64,000 nucleotides of DNA, from contig NZ_CAXTJR010000011.1 in the NCBI RefSeq assembly GCF_964244775.1, positions 20,751 to 84,750 on the forward strand. The letters run 5' to 3'. The notes under the pieces were generated by a model. The model saw only the letters and a list, made by a program, of their open reading frames with translations. It made no database searches and had not been told where the DNA came from. This DNA comes from an uncultured Microbacterium sp. (lineage in GTDB: Bacteria > Actinomycetota > Actinomycetes > Actinomycetales > Microbacteriaceae). A program made the translations under genes and the position numbers. Positions 36,539-47,126 of the stretch are shown one piece after another. Position 1 is the stretch's first letter. Each line of letters starts with the position of its first letter.

Positions 36539-36637
36539 GACTTCGAGACTAGGCCCCGCCCGACGCTCCGAAGACCAGTTCGCGCCGCGTCGCCCCCGGT
36601 CGCGGTACGCTCGCGCCCCGCCGCTCGCGCGCCCCGC

Positions 36638-36866
36638 GGTGATCGAGTAGCGAGCTTGCGAGCGTATCGAGATCCCCCGGACCAACGAACTACGCAGGCT
36701 CGGCGCCGGGTCTCGATACGGCGCTGGCGCGCCTACTCGACCTCCGCCGGGGCGCTCGCGCGCCTACTCGACCTCCGCCGGGGCGCTCGCGCGCCTACTC
36801 GACCTCCGCATCAAGGCCGTGGTGATCGAGTAGCGAGCTTGCGAGCGTATCGAGATCCCCCGGACC
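36638..36866 (-). repeat. Composite intergenic repeat, locus I: A(rc) - spacer - C - three tandem 31-bp B units - A(rc)
   Basis: A is GGTGATCGAGTAGCGAGCTTGCGAGCGTATCGAGATCCCCCGGACC at 36638-36683 and 36821-36866. B is CGCGCCTACTCGACCTCCGCCGGGGCGCTCG, starting at 36728, 36759 and 36790. The same modules recur at about 39.9, 45.5 and 46.4 kb. Confidence 0.9.
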
Positions 36867-36881
36867 GGCGAATCACGCAGG

Positions 36882-39940: not shown

Positions 39941-40133
39941 GATTCTCGATCAGCGCCCCGCTGCGGCGGAGGTCGAGTAGGCGCGCCGCTTCGCGGCGGC
40001 GGGGTCGAGTAGGCTCCCCCTTTTGCGGCGGAGGTCGAGTAGGCGCGCCAGCGCCGTATCGAGACCCGGGCCAACGCCACCCGTCGATCCGAGGGATCTC
40101 GAGACGCTCGCTGGCGCTCGCTACTCGATCACC
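39941..40133 (+). repeat. Composite intergenic repeat, locus II: three B(rc) units - C(rc) - spacer - A
   Basis: GGCGGAGGTCGAGTAGGCGCGCC is at 39965-39987 and 40027-40049, with a degenerate copy at about 39998. A is GATCTCGAGACGCTCGCTGGCGCTCGCTACTCGATCACC at 40095-40133. Confidence 0.9.
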
Positions 40134-40156
40134 GGCTTCAGGCGATCATTTCGCGA

Positions 40157-40771
40157 TCACGAACTCACGTAGCGCAGGTGCACCGTCGCGTACTTGCACG
40201 CGTCTTGGTTCGCCGCGGTGTCGCTGAGGCTGAGCTGTGCGCCGCTGAACTGCACCGACCCCTCGGGGTCGAGTGTTCGAGCGACCGGCATCGAGGCGTA
40301 CGTCAACACGTAGTCGGCGGCATCGCATTGCCCCTCCACGGCATCGGGCGCTTTCGTCACAGAGTCGATCGACACGGTGACCTCAGCGACGAAGGTGCTG
40401 GTCGTGCCGTGGTTCGTGATCTCGCCCGCGAGCATCGTCGGCGCGGCGCCGGGCTTGATTCCCGTATTGACGGAGGTCTGGATGATGGTGAGCCCGCCAT
40501 CTGCGTCGCCCCCGCCGCCCTGCTGGTCGGGGGGGCAGGCTTGGGCGGCCTCGACGGCTGATCCAGATGCCGCCTGCGCGGCAACCGTGCCGCCGGTACC
40601 GGCGACGACCGCGGCGAACAGAATCACCAGGATCAGAGTGCGCCCGGCTTTCGCCCGGTGTCCTCGCCCGACCAGCAGAACCGCGCCGAGGCCGAGCAGC
40701 ACGAGCGCCACGAGACACACCGCAAGGACGGGGAAATATGCGCCGGTGACGGCCAGATCGCAGGGGTTCAC
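40157..40771 (-). CDS. Membrane-tethered TasA/camelysin-like domain protein (paralog of 44669-45166 without the W-STG N-terminal motif)
   Basis: The start is taken as GTG 40771, 22 nt after the upstream stop; ATG 40867 would overlap the upstream gene by 74 nt. It has two hydrophobic segments. The C-terminal domain is colinear with gene 44669-45166 (GQCDAADYVL..., AANQDACKYATVHLRYVSS). Confidence 0.55.
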   Translation of the reverse strand: MNPCDLAVTGAYFPVLAVCLVALVLLGLGAVLLVGRGHRAKAGRTLILVILFAAVVAGTGGTVAAQAASGSAVEAAQACPPDQQGGGGDADGGLTIIQTSVNTGIKPGAAPTMLAGEITNHGTTSTFVAEVTVSIDSVTKAPDAVEGQCDAADYVLTYASMPVARTLDPEGSVQFSGAQLSLSDTAANQDACKYATVHLRYVSS

Positions 40772-40793
40772 CTCATCACTCTCACGATCGGCA

Positions 40794-43700
40794 TCAGGTG
40801 ACGTTGAACGAGGTGCTGGTGATGAAAGCGCCGCTGGTAGACGCTTGAATGATGTAGCCGTTGCCAACTGCGCCGCTTGTCGAGCCGAAAGAGGTCGTGA
40901 CGCCTAGCCCGGTGAAGGTCGCCACACCGGTCGCATCCGTCGTCGCGACGATCGTTGTCACGACTCCGTTCACGGCGAGAAGGCCACTACTGCCGGTGGG
41001 TTGGTTCGAGATGAACAGAGTTACCGACACCCCGGCGTTCCCGTTGTCGAACTGGTCCGACGCCTTGACTGTCACGACCGGGCTGAACATTCCGGCCCTC
41101 ACGATGTTGCCGGGCTGCTGGACGAACACCACCTTGGAAGTGGCGCCGGGGGTGACTGTCTCCGCTTGAGTCGCTGAGGTGAGGCCGGCGAGTGAGGCGG
41201 TGATGGTGGGTGTGCCCGCCACCTTGTCACCGTAGTAGAAGGTCGCCGTGCTCTGGTTCGCCGGGATGCTGACGGTCGCCGTCACGCTCGCTCCGCTGCC
41301 AGGCGCGAAGATGAATTTTCCGGTCGTCGAAGTCGATGTCACGTTTATCGTGGTGAGTGTGGTCGCGGTGACGGGGTTGCCGTAGAGGTCCTGCCGCTGC
41401 ACCGTGATCGCGGAGCCGTTGGTCGTGGCGGAGGCTACAGCCGACCTGCTGACCGACGTGAATGCGAGCTTCGACGCAACCAGTGCGGTGACTGTCTCGA
41501 CCTGCGTCGCCGAGGTGAGCCCCGACACCGCGGCAGTGATGGTGGGTGAGCCTGCTCTGGTGTCGCCGTAGTAGAACGTCACCGTGCTCGACCCCGCCGC
41601 AATGGTTACCGTCGCGGTCGCCGACCCGCTGGTCGGCGCGAAGGTGACGGTCCCGGTCGAATTCGAGGTGAGCGAGACCGTGGTGGCGGTCGCGACGTTG
41701 ACGATGTTGCCATACGGGTCCTGCACCTGAACCGTGATGGCAGTGCCGTTCGTCGTCGCCGACGCGGGCGCCGAACGGCTGACTGAGGTGAAGACCAGCT
41801 TCGAGGCCACAGCGTTCACGGTCTCGACCTGCGTCGCCGAGGTGAGACCCGAGAGAGTCGCGGTGATCGTGGGCGTTCCCGGCGTCGTGTCGCCGTAGTA
41901 GAACGTGGCGATGCTGGTGCCGGCCAGGATGTTGACGGTAGCGGTCGCGGTCGCGCCGCTGGTCGGGGAGAAGATCTTCGTTCCCGTCGAGGTCGACGTC
42001 AACCCGATGGGGGTATCCACGCCAACGGGGACGGCATTGCCGAATTGGTCTTGCTGCTGCACGGTGATCGCGCTGCTGTTCGCGGTGTTCGAGGTGGACG
42101 CCGTGCTGCTCGCTGAGGTGAATGCGAGCTTCGACGCAGCCAAAGCGGTCACCGTCTCGCCCTGGGTCGCGGAGGTGAGGCCCGACGCGGCGGCGGTGAT
42201 GGTGGGTGAGCCTGCTTTGGTGTCGCCGTAATAGAAGGTGGCCGTGTTCGACCCGACCGGGACCGTCACGGCTGTCGCGGCCGTACCGCTGGTCGTCGCG
42301 AAGATCGCGGTGCCGGTTGAGGTCGACGTGAGTGTGAGCGTCGTGGCCGTCGCGACATTGACCGGGTTGCCGTACGTGTCCTGTACCTGCACGGTGATCG
42401 CGGTGCCATTCGTCGTCGCCGACGCGGGCGCGGAACGAGTCGTCGACGTGAATGCGAGCTTCGCCGCGGCCGCCGCGGTCACCGTCTCGCCCTGCGTTGC
42501 GGAGGTGAGTCCCGACGCGGCGGCGGTGATGGTGGGTGAGCCGACCTTGGTGTCGCCGTAGTAGAAAGTGCCGGTATTCGACCCGGACGCAATCGTCACG
42601 GTGGTCGCTGCGGATCCAGTGCTGGGCGCGAAGACCGCCGTGCCGGTCGTATTGGAGGTGAGGGTGAGCGTAGTGGTGGTGCCGACGTTGACGGGGTTGC
42701 CGTACGTGTCCTGCACCTGCACCGTGATCGCAGTGCCGTTCGTTGTCGCCGACGCGGGCGCCGAGCGGGTGGATGACGTGAATATGAGCTTTGCCGCGGC
42801 CGCCGCGCTTACTGTCTCACCCTGCGTTGCGGACGTGAGGGCCGACGCGGCGGCGGTGATGGTGGGGGAGCCCGCTTTGGTGTCGCCGTAGTAGAACGTG
42901 GCTGTGTTCGACCCGACCGCGATCGTCACGGCGGTGGTAGCCGACCCGCTGGTGGGCGCGAACGTGTAAGTGCCGGTCGAGGTCGACGTGAGGGTGAGCG
43001 TGGTGGCGGTCGAGACATTGACCGGATTGCCATACGGATCCTGCACCTGCACCGTGATGGCAGCGCCGTTGGTCGTCGCCGACGCGGACGCCGAGCGGGT
43101 GGTTGAAGTGAAGACGAGCTGGGATGCCGCGATCGCCGTCACCGTTTCAACCTGCGTCGCCGAGGTGAGCCCCGACGCAGCTGCGGTGATCGTCGGCGAT
43201 CCCGGCTTCGTGTCGCCGTAGTAAAACGTGGCCGTGCTCGATCCGGCCGTGATCGTCACGGGCGTTGTCACTGCACCACTGGTGGGTGCGAAGACCGCGG
43301 TGCCGGTCGTGTTGGAGGTGAGCGTGAGGGTGGTGGTCGTGGCGACGTTGACGGGATTGCCGTACGTGTCCTGCACCTGCACCGTGATCGCACTGCCGTT
43401 CGTCGTCGCCGACGCGGGCGCCGAGCGCGTCGTCGACGTGAACACGAGCTTCGATGCGGTCGCGGTGGTGACTGTCTCGCCCTGGGCTGCCGAGGTGAGG
43501 CCCGACGCGGCGGCGGTGATCGTCGGGGAGCCCGCTTTGGTGTCGCCGTAGTAGAACGTGGCCGTGTTCGACCCGACCGCGATCGTCACGGGCGTTGCCG
43601 CCGACCCGCTGGTCGGGGCGAAGACCGTGGTCCCGGTCGAATTCGAGGTGAGCGAGACCGTGGTGGTCGTGGCAACGTTGGCCGGGTTGCCGTATGCGTC

Positions 43701-44573
43701 CTGCACCTGCACCGTGATGGCAGCGCCATTCGTCGTCGCCGACGCTGGCGCCGAGCGGGATGCTGTGGTGAAGATCAGCTTCGAGGCCGCCGCTGCGGTG
43801 ATGTTGAATGCTGCGCTGGTCGCCGAAGTCAGCCCGCTGCCCGATGCGATCAGCGTGTAACCGGTGCCGAGCTTGTCGATGGAGAGGTCCGAGAACGTCG
43901 CCACGCCGTTGGTGGTCGTTGCGGTCCGAGTGCCCGACAATGTCCCCGACGCCGGGTTGGTTCCGATGGCGACGGTGATCGAGAAGCCGGTAGTGGTCAC
44001 GGTGGCCCCGGCCGCGGTCTGCAGCGTGACGGTCACGGCGGACGAGACCGCGGCGCCCGCGACGGTGTTCGTGGGCGGTGCGGTGAAGGCGAGTTTCGCG
44101 GCTGCGATGACGACGCTGTTACTCGGGATGCTGGGGGCGCTCCACGTGCGAAAAACCGCCGTGACGGCGTAGGTATAGCTGCCGACGGGAACGCCGGTGT
44201 CGGCGCACGACGTCGTCGTCAGCAGGGTGGTGGCCGAGGAAGAACACGCGGCCACTGTCGTGCCGCCCGATGTGCGGGTGACGTAATAGCCGGTCGGCAC
44301 GGTGGCGCCGCTGGACGCAGTCCAGCTCACCGAGACGGATGACCCGCTCGAGGGCGGGACGGTGACGGCGGTCGGAGGATTGAGTGTGCCCGTCAAGGCC
44401 GAACCGGTGCCTGTGCCAGTCGAACTCCACGAGGCTTCGGCCGGAGTCGCTCCTGCAATCAGCGCCAGCACCATCACCGCAGACAGGAAAGCCATGACCC
44501 ATCCGCGCGCGACATACGGCAGCCGGTTCCATGTGTGGAACTGGCTGCCGTGCCGCAGCGTTGAAATGGTCAT
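40794..44573 (-). CDS. 1259-aa secreted/surface repeat protein: signal-like N-terminus + W-STG motif, FN3-like domain, about 10 Big(Ig)-like domains; no LPXTG
   Basis: N-terminus is ...AFLSAVMVLALIAGATPAEASWSSTGTGTGSALTGT. It has an FN3-like segment (VSVSWTASSG...GYYVTR...YTYAVTAV). Eight near-identical 110-aa units (ITVQVQDTYGNPVNV...ATFYYGDTKAGSPTITAAASGLTSATQ) sit between divergent first and last units. Confidence 0.85.
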   Translation of the reverse strand: MTISTLRHGSQFHTWNRLPYVARGWVMAFLSAVMVLALIAGATPAEASWSSTGTGTGSALTGTLNPPTAVTVPPSSGSSVSVSWTASSGATVPTGYYVTRTSGGTTVAACSSSATTLLTTTSCADTGVPVGSYTYAVTAVFRTWSAPSIPSNSVVIAAAKLAFTAPPTNTVAGAAVSSAVTVTLQTAAGATVTTTGFSITVAIGTNPASGTLSGTRTATTTNGVATFSDLSIDKLGTGYTLIASGSGLTSATSAAFNITAAAASKLIFTTASRSAPASATTNGAAITVQVQDAYGNPANVATTTTVSLTSNSTGTTVFAPTSGSAATPVTIAVGSNTATFYYGDTKAGSPTITAAASGLTSAAQGETVTTATASKLVFTSTTRSAPASATTNGSAITVQVQDTYGNPVNVATTTTLTLTSNTTGTAVFAPTSGAVTTPVTITAGSSTATFYYGDTKPGSPTITAAASGLTSATQVETVTAIAASQLVFTSTTRSASASATTNGAAITVQVQDPYGNPVNVSTATTLTLTSTSTGTYTFAPTSGSATTAVTIAVGSNTATFYYGDTKAGSPTITAAASALTSATQGETVSAAAAAKLIFTSSTRSAPASATTNGTAITVQVQDTYGNPVNVGTTTTLTLTSNTTGTAVFAPSTGSAATTVTIASGSNTGTFYYGDTKVGSPTITAAASGLTSATQGETVTAAAAAKLAFTSTTRSAPASATTNGTAITVQVQDTYGNPVNVATATTLTLTSTSTGTAIFATTSGTAATAVTVPVGSNTATFYYGDTKAGSPTITAAASGLTSATQGETVTALAASKLAFTSASSTASTSNTANSSAITVQQQDQFGNAVPVGVDTPIGLTSTSTGTKIFSPTSGATATATVNILAGTSIATFYYGDTTPGTPTITATLSGLTSATQVETVNAVASKLVFTSVSRSAPASATTNGTAITVQVQDPYGNIVNVATATTVSLTSNSTGTVTFAPTSGSATATVTIAAGSSTVTFYYGDTRAGSPTITAAVSGLTSATQVETVTALVASKLAFTSVSRSAVASATTNGSAITVQRQDLYGNPVTATTLTTINVTSTSTTGKFIFAPGSGASVTATVSIPANQSTATFYYGDKVAGTPTITASLAGLTSATQAETVTPGATSKVVFVQQPGNIVRAGMFSPVVTVKASDQFDNGNAGVSVTLFISNQPTGSSGLLAVNGVVTTIVATTDATGVATFTGLGVTTSFGSTSGAVGNGYIIQASTSGAFITSTSFNVT
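41150..43790 (-). repeat. Tandem array of about eight 330-bp (110-codon) units inside the giant gene (boundaries approximate)
   Basis: The protein is periodic. Antisense ORFs in the track recur every 330 nt (41905, 42238, 42568, 43228, 43558) with near-identical translations. Confidence 0.85.
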
Positions 44574-44668
44574 GGCTCCCCAGCCAATATGTATTGCTGC
44601 GCAGCTGGGGCTGGGCCCGTGTGGCTACCGCCACCGCGCTATCTCGTACTTGATGCGTACCGGTCGAT

Positions 44669-45166
44669 TTAGCTGGCTTCGAAGTAGATCGGAACGGTCA
44701 GGCCTTTGCAATCGTTCTGGTTGGCCGCTGCATTAACCATCGATACAGTGACGCTGCCGGTCGCGGTTCCGTTGGCCACAATATCTCCGTAGGACGTAAC
44801 GGCACCAACGACGAGCGTGTAGTCGTCGGCCGAGCAATTGAGGGCGACAGCACCGGCGGTCGGCTCCCACGGGGTGCCGTCCGCATTTGCGACCACAGCG
44901 GTGACGGCGGTGAGGTTCTGCGTTCCCGTTCCGGGGTTCGTGACCGTGAACGCGACTGATTGGCTCGGCCCACCGGGCGTGAGCACCGGGCCAGTGGCTG
45001 CAGTCGAGGTGATCTCGAATGGCGTGTCGGTTCCTGTCGTTGCGCTCCCTGACCCGTTGCCGGTGGAAGTCCAGTACGCGAACGCGGCCGCGCCGCCACC
45101 GATCAGAAGGACTGAGGCGGCAACAATGGCCGCGATGCGTTGCTTTTTGGTGATTTTCCGAGACAT
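44669..45166 (-). CDS. TasA/camelysin-like secreted protein with SipW-dependent (alternate-type) signal-peptide pattern
   Basis: Trimmed to MSRKITKKQRIAAIVAASVLLIGGGAAAFAYWTSTGNGSGS (cat 45164-45166). The C-terminus AANQNDCKGLTVPIYFEAS resembles the TasA-family terminal strand (N.YQG.S..L.F.FEA.Q, as I recall it). Confidence 0.65.
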   Translation of the reverse strand: MSRKITKKQRIAAIVAASVLLIGGGAAAFAYWTSTGNGSGSATTGTDTPFEITSTAATGPVLTPGGPSQSVAFTVTNPGTGTQNLTAVTAVVANADGTPWEPTAGAVALNCSADDYTLVVGAVTSYGDIVANGTATGSVTVSMVNAAANQNDCKGLTVPIYFEAS

Positions 45167-45199
45167 GGTTTCCCCGATGATTATGTGTGTGTGAAACAT

Positions 45200-45483
45200 C
45201 GACGGTGTCTCATCATTTTCTAATGTACTCCTGAATAATGTGAATAGGATGTTATTTTACATTCTCGAAATACTTGGCGTGACGCGGGGTTTGTATGAAA
45301 TGGAGCGTAAATCGATGCTTCGAAACCGTTAATCCAGCGCCGACGAATTTCTTGAGAAATCCTCCCAGAGATAGCCAAACGATTTTCGCCACAGTTGAAT
45401 CGCAAATTGCGGCCTGGGCCGCCTATATGGAATATGAATAACCGGTATAAATCAGTTTGATGTTTCGGAAAGTAAATTGGTTT
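45200..45483 (-). promoter_or_regulatory. Strikingly AT-rich (~40% G+C by eye) 284-bp upstream region of the TasA-like operon
   Basis: Read directly, for example ttctaatgtactcctgaataatgtgaataggatgttattttacattctcgaaatactt. It has no convincing ORF and is bounded by repeat element A at 45484. Confidence 0.6.
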
Positions 45484-45778
45484 GTCCGGGGGATCTCGAT
45501 ACGCTCGCTGGCGCTCGCTACTCGATCACCGCGGCGCGCCGGCCGCCACCCTGCGGAGGTCGAGGCGGCGCGCCAGCGCCACCCTGCGGAGGTCGAGGCG
45601 GCGCGCCAGCGCCACCCTGCGGGGGTCGAGTAGGCGCCCCAGCGCCGTACCGAGACCATGGCGCCAAACCTGCGTAGTACGTCGGCCCGGGCGATCTCGA
45701 TACGCTCGCTGGCGCTCGCTACTCGATCACCGCGACGCGCGCTCGCTGGCGCTCGCTACTCGATCACCGCGACGCGGC
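45484..45778 (+). repeat. Composite intergenic repeat, locus III: A - three 33-bp B(rc)-like units - C(rc) - spacer - A - partial A
   Basis: A is at 45484-45530 and 45683-45730, with a partial copy at 45740-45768. B-like units start at 45545, 45578 and 45611. Confidence 0.9.
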
Positions 45779-45781
45779 GGG

Positions 45782-46360: not shown

Positions 46361-46435
46361 GCGCCGCACGCTACCGCGCGGATGCCGACCCATTGGGCCG
46401 CCACGCTGGCGCGGATGAGTGTGCGTTGTCCGCAG

Positions 46436-46511
46436 ATCCGGGCGATCTCGATACGCTCGCAAGCTCGCTACTCGATCACCGCAGCACTCGCTGGCGCTCG
46501 CTACTCGATCA
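46436..46511 (+). repeat. Intergenic repeat, locus IV: A (CAAG variant) + partial A
   Basis: ATCCGGGCGATCTCGATACGCTCGCAAGCTCGCTACTCGATCACC is at 46436-46480, followed by CACTCGCTGGCGCTCGCTACTCGATCA at 46485-46511. Confidence 0.9.
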
Positions 46512-47126
46512 GGTCATGTCGCCCGTCGTCGGGGCGCCGGCAGGCGCGTAGCGCAGCCGCAGCGCTCCGCTCGGCCCGGTGAGGGCGGGCTCGGTCAGCC
46601 GGAGCTTCGCGGGTGTCGCCCCGTCGGGGAACACCTTCTTACCCTCGCCGAGCACGACCGGGTACACCCAGAGGTTCAGGATGTCGTACAGCTCGCCGGC
46701 CAGCAGGGTCTGCACGAAGTCGATGCTGCCGATCACGTGGATGTCCGAATGACGCTCGCGGAGAGCATCCATCTCGGCCGCGATGTCGGTGCCGAGCTGC
46801 GTCGTGCCCTGCCACTCGGGCGTCAGGATGCGGCGCGAGGCCACATACTTCGGGATGCTGTCGAACTTCTGCCCGATCGGCCCCTCGGGCCCGGTCGTGT
46901 GATGCGGCCAGTAGCCGGCGAAGATGTCGTATGTGCGGCGGCCGAGCAGCAGCGCATCCATCGCCTCGATGCCCTCACCGATCGTCGCCCCGAGCACGTC
47001 GTCGTCGAGCGGTGCCTGCCAGCCGCCCCAGCGGAAGCCGCCCGAGGTGTCTTCCTCGGGTCCGCCCGGAGCCTGGGCGACGCCGTCCAGGGTCGTGAAC
47101 AGATCGATCGTGATGCGACCGGTCAT
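46509..47126 (-). CDS. Dihydrofolate-reductase-family protein (RibD C-terminal domain type)
   Basis: MTGRITIDLFTTLDGV...LLLGRRTYDIFAGYW...VIGSIDFVQTLL pattern. Confidence 0.8.
   Translation of the reverse strand: MTGRITIDLFTTLDGVAQAPGGPEEDTSGGFRWGGWQAPLDDDVLGATIGEGIEAMDALLLGRRTYDIFAGYWPHHTTGPEGPIGQKFDSIPKYVASRRILTPEWQGTTQLGTDIAAEMDALRERHSDIHVIGSIDFVQTLLAGELYDILNLWVYPVVLGEGKKVFPDGATPAKLRLTEPALTGPSGALRLRYAPAGAPTTGDMT

Follow-up and report, generated by a model that had tools for sequence, protein, structure and literature searches.

Canonical substrates of class E sortases, such as the chaplins of Streptomyces, possess a C-terminal sorting signal in which the LAxTG motif is followed by a hydrophobic helix and then by a tail rich in Arg. 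Sortase normally keeps only the part of its substrate that is N-terminal to the motif Thr. The LAxTG form of the motif is typical of class E sortases (PMC5148588). An "atypical" arrangement is found in the streptococcal IgA1 protease and in ZmpB, ZmpC, and ZmpD: an N-terminal LPXTG motif, two transmembrane (TM) segments, and a second signal-peptidase site, required for localisation, as described in three papers (PMC3518915, PMC9637739, PMC2225412, citing Bender & Weiser 2006). Here, we describe a three-gene operon of an uncultured Microbacterium sp., located in a 64,000-nucleotide stretch of contig NZ_CAXTJR010000011.1 (positions 20,751 to 84,750, hereafter the window). The product of its third gene has at its N-terminus, and not at its C-terminus, what its sequence identifies as a tripartite sorting signal for sortase. 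Together, the three genes would form a plug-and-socket, wall-anchored surface display cassette, a reading to which we give a probability of roughly 45%. Its probable role is to present a large, exchangeable surface protein on a small base.

The three genes are co-directional on the minus strand and are designated gene 1 (44669-45166(-), 165 aa), gene 2 (40794-44573(-), 1259 aa), and gene 3 (40157-40771(-), 204 aa). They are separated by gaps of 95 and 22 nt (Table 1). Re-derivation of the open reading frames (ORFs) bore out the positions, strand, and gaps given in an initial annotation of this DNA. Gene 3 starts with a GTG, equivalent to the M-x-C start of its homologues, and its product begins with M-N-P-C-D-LAVTG, followed by AYFPVLAVCLVALVLLGLGAVLLV and by GRGHRAKAGR. 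It has the L[PA]xTG motif, hydrophobic helix, and positive tail of a sortase substrate, but not the C-terminal placement: the signal occupies residues 1-44, and 160 residues come after it. In an alignment of gene 3 homologues, a conserved M-[NTD]-C-x-x-L-[PA]-x-T-G precedes the first helix and an Arg-rich cluster follows it. T9, G10, and C79 are invariant in this alignment, as are C149 and C192 of the C-terminal sandwich, while M1, C3, and L6 are conserved at 90% or more. All 49 independently called full-length homologues display M-x-C-x-x-[LI][PA]xTG, with the motif at residues 5-11, as well as a loop with 2-7 Arg/Lys and no Asp/Glu, a later AxA, and then a Cys. This Cys lies 1-5 residues past the AxA in the homologues, and C79 of the window protein directly follows the second AQA. 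Among close homologue pairs, synonymous changes in the first 36 codons of gene 3 are at least as numerous as non-synonymous ones, and none falls in the motif.

One of the structure predictions with AlphaFold2 (AF2) was made with database homologues as input. The gene 3 model has a mean predicted local distance difference test (pLDDT) score of 79, with two helices at the N-terminus followed by a sandwich of 7 strands with scores above 90. Curated hidden Markov models (HMMs) of sorting signals recognise many gene 3 homologues. NF058582 (Microco_LAVTG, "LAVTG motif-containing sortase-dependent surface protein") matches 11 of 20 (2e-6), TIGR01167 also 11 (7e-5), and PF00746 (Gram_pos_anchor) five. 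Five gene 3 homologues bear the JGI name "LPXTG-motif cell wall-anchored protein". The canonical C-terminal sorting signals encoded in the same loci have the same appearance as the gene 3 signal, but without the Cys. The initial annotation saw no sortase-type anchor and considered gene 3 as membrane-tethered. This part is not supported, since the "TM segments" on which it relied start with LAVTG, and a sorting signal of this kind is present in all 49 homologues. Two further models, NF033207 ("midcut-by-XrtH protein") and NF058595 ("lipo-invert putative C-terminal anchoring domain"), match seven and four of the 20 homologues, respectively; both represent further curated cases of sorting signals at non-standard positions.

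A read-through or frameshift fusing gene 2 to the LAVTG motif was considered and rejected. From locus to locus, the distance separating the gene 2 stop codon from the first codon of gene 3 lies anywhere from -52 to +30 nt, and the frame varies; the commonest junction is an ATGA overlap. Because both frame and gap vary between loci, gene 3 is a separate cistron and not the tail of gene 2.

The streptococcal IgA1/Zmp N-terminal LPXTG domain is the only precedent found for the gene 3 anchor; the literature searched contained no account of an N-terminal or inverted sortase signal from Actinobacteria. Judged by the description of the streptococcal domain in PMC3518915, the two are alike in their N-terminal LPXTG-type motif, two TM segments, and second signal-peptidase site. 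They have no sequence homology, and gene 3 has the anchoring logic in common with the Zmp domain without belonging to the same family. Zmp proteins possess a first signal peptide, often of the YSIRK type, and a longer stretch before LPXTG. In contrast, gene 3 starts directly with M-x-C, and its short N-tail, free of Lys/Arg, must cross the membrane without a signal peptide. Two conserved Cys flank the hairpin of the actinobacterial module, implying a disulfide tether; we are not aware of such a pair in the Zmp domain. Motif and cargo also differ, with LAxTG (class E) and a 110-aa sandwich passenger in gene 3 against an M26 protease of 1900 aa in the Zmp proteins. Gene 3 resembles the canonical sortase E substrates in its LAxTG, hydrophobic helix, and Arg-rich tail. 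It departs from them in the N-terminal position of the signal, the second helix with its AxA, and the two flanking Cys, and only a nonapeptide would stay on the wall after cleavage.

As judged from profile matches, this N-terminal sorting module is portable and widespread. A module profile of 74 positions was used in an exhaustive HMMER search of 1.84 billion representatives (E<=1e-3), in which 283 representative proteins matched, nearly all at residues 1-75. Among the best 150 of these 283, 135 contain the succession Cys..L[PA]xTG..TM..R-rich, and 131 have the AxA..Cys in addition, while the gene 3 domain is found in only 76. Of these 131 full-module proteins, 65 carry passengers other than the gene 3 domain, of 119-730 aa. 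These include P/T-rich linkers, DUF11-like repeats, Ca-binding repeats, a GDSL-like enzyme, and a protein-arginine deiminase from an Actinomycetaceae metagenome-assembled genome (MAG). The taxa named in the look-ups of module clusters are Rathayibacter, Cellulomonas, and this Actinomycetaceae MAG; the Rathayibacter protein WP_129588124.1 bears the module and is annotated merely as an LPXTG anchor protein. Since both flanking Cys are retained whatever the passenger, they belong to the module. A profile of the module, used against a 5.8-billion word-indexed database, returned one uninformative match of 50 aa. One metagenomic protein of 651 aa (P0266) harbors two full Cys-LPxTG-TM-R-TM-AxA-Cys copies, at residues 1-75 and 190-251, before a GDSL-like domain; the doubling is natural or else stems from a gene call that fused two genes.

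The other two genes share sequence elements with each other and, in the case of gene 1, with gene 3. The gene 1 signal peptide ends in AFA, followed by YWTSTGNGSGSATTGT, a segment nearly invariant in 30 gene 1 homologues, in particular at its G-x-G-x-G and TGT positions; A28, A30, and W32 are strictly invariant. In gene 2, AEA is followed by SWSSTGTGTGSALTGT, and this segment is found in essentially all of 45 gene 2 homologues. The N-terminal regions of the two proteins are 46% identical over 46 aa (BLASTP E 2e-6). By the -3,-1 rule, the segment and its W-STG motif start the mature protein, rather than being removed together with the signal peptide. The C-terminal two-Cys domains of genes 1 and 3 are 28% identical over 105 aa (BLASTP E 2e-6). 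The initial annotation had recognised both the post-signal segment common to genes 1 and 2 and the two-Cys domain common to genes 1 and 3, and both hold. C111 and C153 are invariant in the 30 gene 1 homologues. The AF2 model of gene 1 (pLDDT 82.5 overall, above 90 over most of the sandwich) displays 7-8 strands. Gene 1 homologues form 93 clusters of ~157-160 aa, all actinobacterial, none with a Pfam domain. Gene 3 therefore appears as a sandwich without the segment, gene 1 possesses both, and gene 2 has the segment without the sandwich.

Across the 45 gene 2 homologues, only the first ~160 residues are conserved. They comprise the AxA signal, the [YF]W..G.G..A.TGTL.APT.V segment, and an FN3-like domain that matches Pfam fn3 with E 5e-4, below the gathering score. 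The remainder is variable. In the window, it consists of 10 Ig-like units of 105-113 aa each, eight of which are ~110-aa tandem repeats about 80% identical. The Pfam domains found in passengers of the homologues are Ice_binding (17), Big_13 (18), Big_3_5 (4), and Laminin_G_3 (1). Gene 2 has neither an LPXTG motif nor a C-terminal TM segment, and none of its 45 homologues has an anchor of its own. Its FN3-like domain, its ~10 Big-like domains, and the lack of both anchors are as first annotated. Read across its homologues, gene 2 is a carrier with exchangeable cargo.

At the DNA level, the 110-aa Ig units are encoded by eight tandem 330-nt repeats (41320-43790) that are 64-83% identical and probably prone to changes in repeat number. 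An Rfam match to CRISPR-DR20 within these repeats (41596-41650) is below threshold and probably due to chance. Ice_binding (DUF3494) replaces the Ig repeats in 17 of the 45 homologous cassettes, as exemplified by loci L002/L073 (10636-12687), and many of the hosts are cold-environment Microbacteriaceae. These middle proteins could be wall-mounted ice-binding proteins.

Related loci were collected by scanning one genome per species, which yielded 71 actinobacterial loci. A gene 1 homologue, a protein with the gene 2 module, and a gene 3 homologue follow each other in the same order in 24-25 of them. The hosts belong to the Microbacteriaceae (Subtercola, Microbacterium, Compostimonas, Mycetocola, Salinibacterium, and Schumannella) and, beyond this family, to Actinokineospora, Amycolatopsis, Promicromonospora, Kribbella, and Arthrobacter. 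The flanks show no synteny across loci, the neighbours differing in every case examined. By sequence comparison, the shared segments and domain layout exceed chance expectation and are conserved in relatives. This constant order agrees with the initial proposal of a trio acting as one functional unit, and the spread of the trio in Actinomycetota removes the "orphan" status attributed to it. In distant loci, from Nocardioidaceae, Intrasporangiaceae, and Thermoleophilia, gene 1 and the gene 2 module are retained, and the third protein combines an N-terminal TM segment or signal with Ig spacers and with this same two-Cys domain at its C-terminus, so that N-terminal anchoring combined with a C-terminal socket would be the conserved logic. 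In some loci (L011, L049, and L052), gene 1 is present as two to four paralogues in tandem. Directly downstream of the gene 3 homologue of Actinokineospora sp. HUAS TT18 lies a gene (L010 12490-13881) for a 464-aa protein with a canonical C-terminal LATTG signal, which may represent a fourth component of the cassette in this lineage.

The mechanism that we propose for the anchor is as follows. Gene 3 would enter the membrane as a helical hairpin whose two ends both lie on the outside, a topology that fits its Lys/Arg-poor N-tail (short and nearly without Lys/Arg, 5/49 homologues), its strongly positive loop, and the two helices of the AF2 model. The hairpin would put LAVTG at the outer face of the membrane, the position that the motif has in ordinary sortase substrates. 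A class E sortase with a housekeeping role would then cut between the Thr and Gly of LAVTG and join the N-terminal nonapeptide, with its Cys4, to the peptidoglycan. Signal peptidase I would cut after the AxA and release the hairpin, so that mature gene 3 would have only a few residues ahead of Cys79. The mature sandwich domain would be tied covalently to the wall-linked peptide by a disulfide between Cys4 and Cys79. Since sortase would keep only the Cys4 nonapeptide and signal peptidase would free the domain, it is this disulfide that would hold the domain on the wall. Exported proteins of Actinobacteria are well known to undergo oxidative folding. The net outcome would be a gene 3 protein anchored to the wall by its N-terminal end, which is unattainable with a normal C-terminal signal.

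The second part of the mechanism concerns assembly on this base. The mature N-terminal segment of genes 1 and 2 would dock, probably as an added β-strand, on a sandwich of the gene 3/gene 1 type. This sets a polarity, in which gene 3 would be a socket-only base, gene 1 a stackable extender through the wall, and gene 2 a plug-only distal passenger, in the window a 10-domain Ig stalk or adhesin. Such a polarity would explain why gene 2 has no anchor, why its cargo can be swapped, and why gene 1 paralogues occur in tandem.

Several described systems follow a comparable logic. In chaperone-usher pili, the distribution of socket-only, plug-plus-socket, and plug-only subunits likewise sets polarity, as illustrated by tip adhesins devoid of an Nte. 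Unlike these pili, the cassette has no chaperone or usher, belongs to a Gram-positive envelope, and is built of 7-strand sandwiches; in Foldseek, these have no significant similarity to Fim pilins or PapD-like domains. The non-covalent display systems based on cohesin-dockerin pairs with anchored scaffoldins and on WxL/WxLIP clusters also associate a small anchored receptor with interchangeable cargo carrying a short docking module, encoded together. They have no homology to the cassette, in which the proposed docking element is a 16-residue N-terminal segment; WxLIP (9i1y) is a weak Foldseek match (E 0.05). In contrast to SpaA-type pili, genes 1 and 2 have no C-terminal sorting signal and no conserved pilin Lys, the sole Lys of mature gene 1 being replaced by Gln in some homologues, and no sortase is adjacent.

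Several points weigh against the display cassette as proposed here. The disulfide and both cleavages are predicted from sequence rules only. No sortase ORF (TLxTC) was found in the window or in the flanks of the 71 loci, and the window gene 3 itself matches the LAVTG model weakly (E 4.4). The near-universality of the Cys among module matches is partly ascertainment, as the profile contained Cys columns. The docking step is the weakest link and has no direct support. In the AF2 monomer of gene 1, the segment is undocked with a low pLDDT, and the sandwiches of genes 1 and 3 have no obvious missing strand, since the full 7-strand set is predicted. The docking segment is rich in Gly, Ser, and Thr, without alternating hydrophobic residues, and the covariation of gene 1 and gene 2 segments within loci is marginal (p=0.05).

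The difficulties of the docking step are also what favours a first alternative, in which the three proteins are co-expressed and do not assemble, the [YF]W-STG-x-G-x-G segment being a tag for processing, O-glycosylation, or export. The segment, with its Ser/Thr/Gly-rich composition, is predicted to be disordered, both sandwiches look complete, and the covariation is not significant. This alternative accounts poorly for the strict gene order and co-occurrence despite varying passengers, and for a gene 2 that has no anchor of its own. The near-invariance of G-x-G-x-G and TGT also exceeds the needs of a glycosylation tract, and we regard non-assembly as unlikely.

A second alternative bears on the anchor. 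The gene 3 hairpin would be a plain two-helix membrane anchor, its LAxTG being either a relic of an ancestral C-terminal signal or a motif bound by sortase but uncut, and the complex would sit on the membrane. The absence of a cassette-linked sortase, both in the window and in the 71 flanks, is in line with this possibility, as are the distant-locus base proteins with a plain N-terminal TM segment or signal and the poor scores of window gene 3 with sortase-signal models. Opposed to it are the invariance of T9 and G10 and the near-invariance of L6 and C3 in proteins that are 35-55% identical elsewhere, and the occurrence of the same motif with its two Cys on at least 65 unrelated passengers. 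This invariance and recurrence argue that selection acts on the motif as such rather than on hydrophobicity alone, which makes a simple membrane anchor quite unlikely.

A third alternative is the one from which the initial annotation started, namely a fibre of the TasA/camelysin type whose export relies on SipW-class signal peptides. Gene 1 would polymerise by donor-strand exchange, gene 2 would cap the fibre, and gene 3 would form a membrane base, without a sortase. The precedent is well described. In the TapA-SipW-TasA system of Bacillus subtilis, the accessory protein possesses the donor-strand sequence of the fibre subunit, and growth proceeds by N-terminal donor-strand complementation (PMC9674648, PMC10151520). 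The cassette resembles it as a small operon of secreted proteins, with a similar mature N-terminal segment in the accessory protein and the major subunit, and the signal and N-terminal region of gene 1 are weakly SipW-class-like. TIGR04088 matches 13 of 30 gene 1 homologues weakly (best 8e-4), TIGR04089 matches two, and Peptidase_M73 (PF12389) matches ten weakly (best E 0.0072). SipW-class and M73 models are the commonest weak match of gene 1 homologues in their own libraries, and one homologue is named [quoted passage not shown] in UniRef. In a Marmoricola MAG (L030 7323-9605), two ORFs resembling ER/SipW-type signal peptidases (SGSMSP...THRV...KGDGN) lie directly upstream of the gene 1 homologue, together with an FN3 protein with an AYAAW motif. 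When the gene 1 family profile was aligned with TasA (hhalign; TasA sequence checked against PDB 8aur), only the stretch "L.PG....F.V.N.G" aligned, with TasA residues 58-85.

These signals do not add up to a TasA-like protein. The hhalign probability is 0.9%, and no window protein reaches a curated threshold: TIGR04088 gives gene 1 8.4 bits (E 2.4; cut-off 19 bits), TIGR04088/TIGR04089 do not match gene 2, and Peptidase_M73 does not match window genes 1 and 3 at E<=1. Foldseek searches of the PDB with the gene 1 and gene 3 AF2 models returned nothing at E<=1e-3. The top 50 contained generic β-sandwiches, such as ApaG, adaptin ear, CBM3, TRAP, and PapD-like domains, and no TasA (8aur, 5of1), camelysin, or archaeal bundling pilin. 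Sequence searches of the PDB, with single sequences and with profiles, also returned nothing. The domain of ~115 aa is half the size of the ~230-aa TasA jellyroll and contains a disulfide, and the cassette differs further from the Bacillus operon by its lack of a SipW gene, by a base with a sortase signal, and by a giant variable passenger as the middle gene. A SipW-like peptidase is encoded in only one of the 71 loci, the distant Marmoricola one, and is missing from the window. Since all predicted cleavage sites are plain AxA, they need no special peptidase. A fibre of this type would also leave the conserved LAxTG signal of gene 3 unexplained. The data do not support placing genes 1 and 3 among the TasA proteins, and we consider the fibre decidedly improbable; the N-terminal region may have a remote evolutionary link to the SipW class, the commonest weak match in both libraries. 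The initial annotation thus keeps its functional unit and its division of roles, with a polymer or extender, a giant passenger, and a base, which is still the best reading. It loses the TasA fold, SipW dependence, orphan status, and absence of an anchor.

Finally, sortase could ligate the gene 3 nonapeptide to the N-terminal amine of mature gene 1 or gene 2, its Cys then cross-linking to gene 3; this would employ the LAxTG, the Cys pair, and the conserved mature N-termini together, but the module is found on many proteins without gene 1 or gene 2 partners and must therefore have a generic function, and as we know of no sortase using the α-amine of Tyr or Ser in vivo, such a ligation is very hard to credit.

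The display cassette remains the preferred reading, and its features are listed in Table 1. The gene 1 ORF contains an in-frame ATG further upstream, at 45199; the start was placed at 45166 because homologues begin with MSR/MAK..KKR. The 314-bp leader 5' of gene 1 has a GC content of 42%, against 69% for the genome, and harbors one sigma-70-like promoter site, TTCACA-18-GAAAAT, at 45244-45215. An Rfam scan of this leader revealed no family, no riboswitch, and no other known RNA. Gene 1 itself has 62% GC and a GC content at third codon positions (GC3) of 0.72, compared with a GC3 of 0.86-0.93 in neighbouring genes. The cassette thus forms a lower-GC island in the window, and the low GC of the leader and of gene 1 suggests either horizontal acquisition or an AT-rich regulatory region. 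The island is flanked exactly by two clusters similar to repetitive extragenic palindromic (REP) elements, in the same, direct orientation. GC-rich composite REP-like repeats were found in the window only at 36620-36880, 39945-40142, 45477-45780, and 46417-46522, all intergenic, and their units include GGCGCGCCTACTCGACCTCCGC and GCGAGCGTATCGAGATCCCCCGGAC. The flanking repeats were not found in the 71 related loci. Neither an S26 peptidase motif nor a sortase motif occurs anywhere in the window, in accordance with the initial statement that the locus encodes no SipW-type peptidase and no sortase. None of the three window proteins reached a threshold in scans with Pfam and NCBIfam, and no family of either collection covers any of them.

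Table 1. Features of the display cassette and its borders in the window.
Feature	Coordinates	Strand	Basis
Gene 3, residues 1-10, M-N-P-C4-D-L-A-V-T-G, Cys and class-E-type LAVTG	40742..40771	-	
Gene 3, residues 11-34, first hydrophobic helix	40670..40741	-	AF2 helix 15-35; alignment
Gene 3, residues 35-44, positive loop GRGHRAKAGR, predicted cytoplasmic	40640..40669	-	
Gene 3, residues 45-67, second hydrophobic helix, ending in A65-Q66-A67, signal peptidase I-type site	40571..40639	-	AF2 helix 43-58
Gene 3, residues 68-93, linker with second AQA and invariant Cys79	40493..40570	-	
Gene 3, residues 94-204 and stop, two-Cys β-sandwich, putative socket	40157..40492	-	
Gene 1, residues 1-30, signal peptide, A28-F29-A30 then Y31	45077..45166	-	Translation; homologue conservation
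Gene 1, residues 31-46, mature N-terminal segment, putative plug or donor strand	45029..45076	-	
Gene 1, residues 47-165 and stop, two-Cys β-sandwich	44669..45028	-	AF2; alignment
Gene 2, residues 1-47, signal peptide, A45-E46-A47 then S48	44433..44573	-	A45 and A47 nearly invariant in 45 homologues
Gene 2, residues 48-63, mature N-terminal segment	44385..44432	-	Homology to gene 1 segment
Gene 2, residues 64-159, FN3-like adaptor domain, invariant C110 and C123	44097..44384	-	
Gene 2, passenger, 10 Ig-like (invasin/Big-like) units and stop	40794..44096	-	Repeats; weak Invasin_D3 match
AT-rich upstream/regulatory region of the operon	45167..45480	-	42% GC; sigma-70-like match
REP-like composite repeat cluster directly downstream of gene 3, island boundary	39945..40142	.	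Repeat analysis
REP-like composite repeat cluster directly upstream of the operon	45477..45780	.	Direct orientation relative to downstream cluster

The anchor may have a meaning beyond this locus. It is possible, although the odds are against it, that Actinobacteria possess a general, hitherto undescribed excisable-hairpin sorting signal for covalent attachment to the cell wall by the N-terminal end (Cys-x-L[PA]xTG, TM, Arg loop, TM, AxA, Cys), with a disulfide-stapled passenger whose attachment would be reversible by reduction. The present cassette would then be the case in which a socket, completed by an extender, receives exchangeable cargo (Ig stalks, ice-binding or lectin-like domains) through a shared N-terminal strand. 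The disulfide tether would answer the limit that sortase retains only the parts N-terminal to its motif. Anchoring by an N-terminal sortase signal, until now a peculiarity of the streptococcal IgA1/Zmp proteases, would become a widespread portable module, with at least 283 representative clusters. Annotation would be affected, as pipelines presume LPXTG signals to be C-terminal; the three proteins and their homologues are currently annotated as "hypothetical" or plain "LPXTG cell wall anchor". The module would also offer surface-display engineering a redox-releasable N-terminal anchoring tag. For the bacteria themselves, the cassette would represent a modular system by which actinobacteria of soils and cold environments display large proteins on their surface, ice-binding proteins among them.

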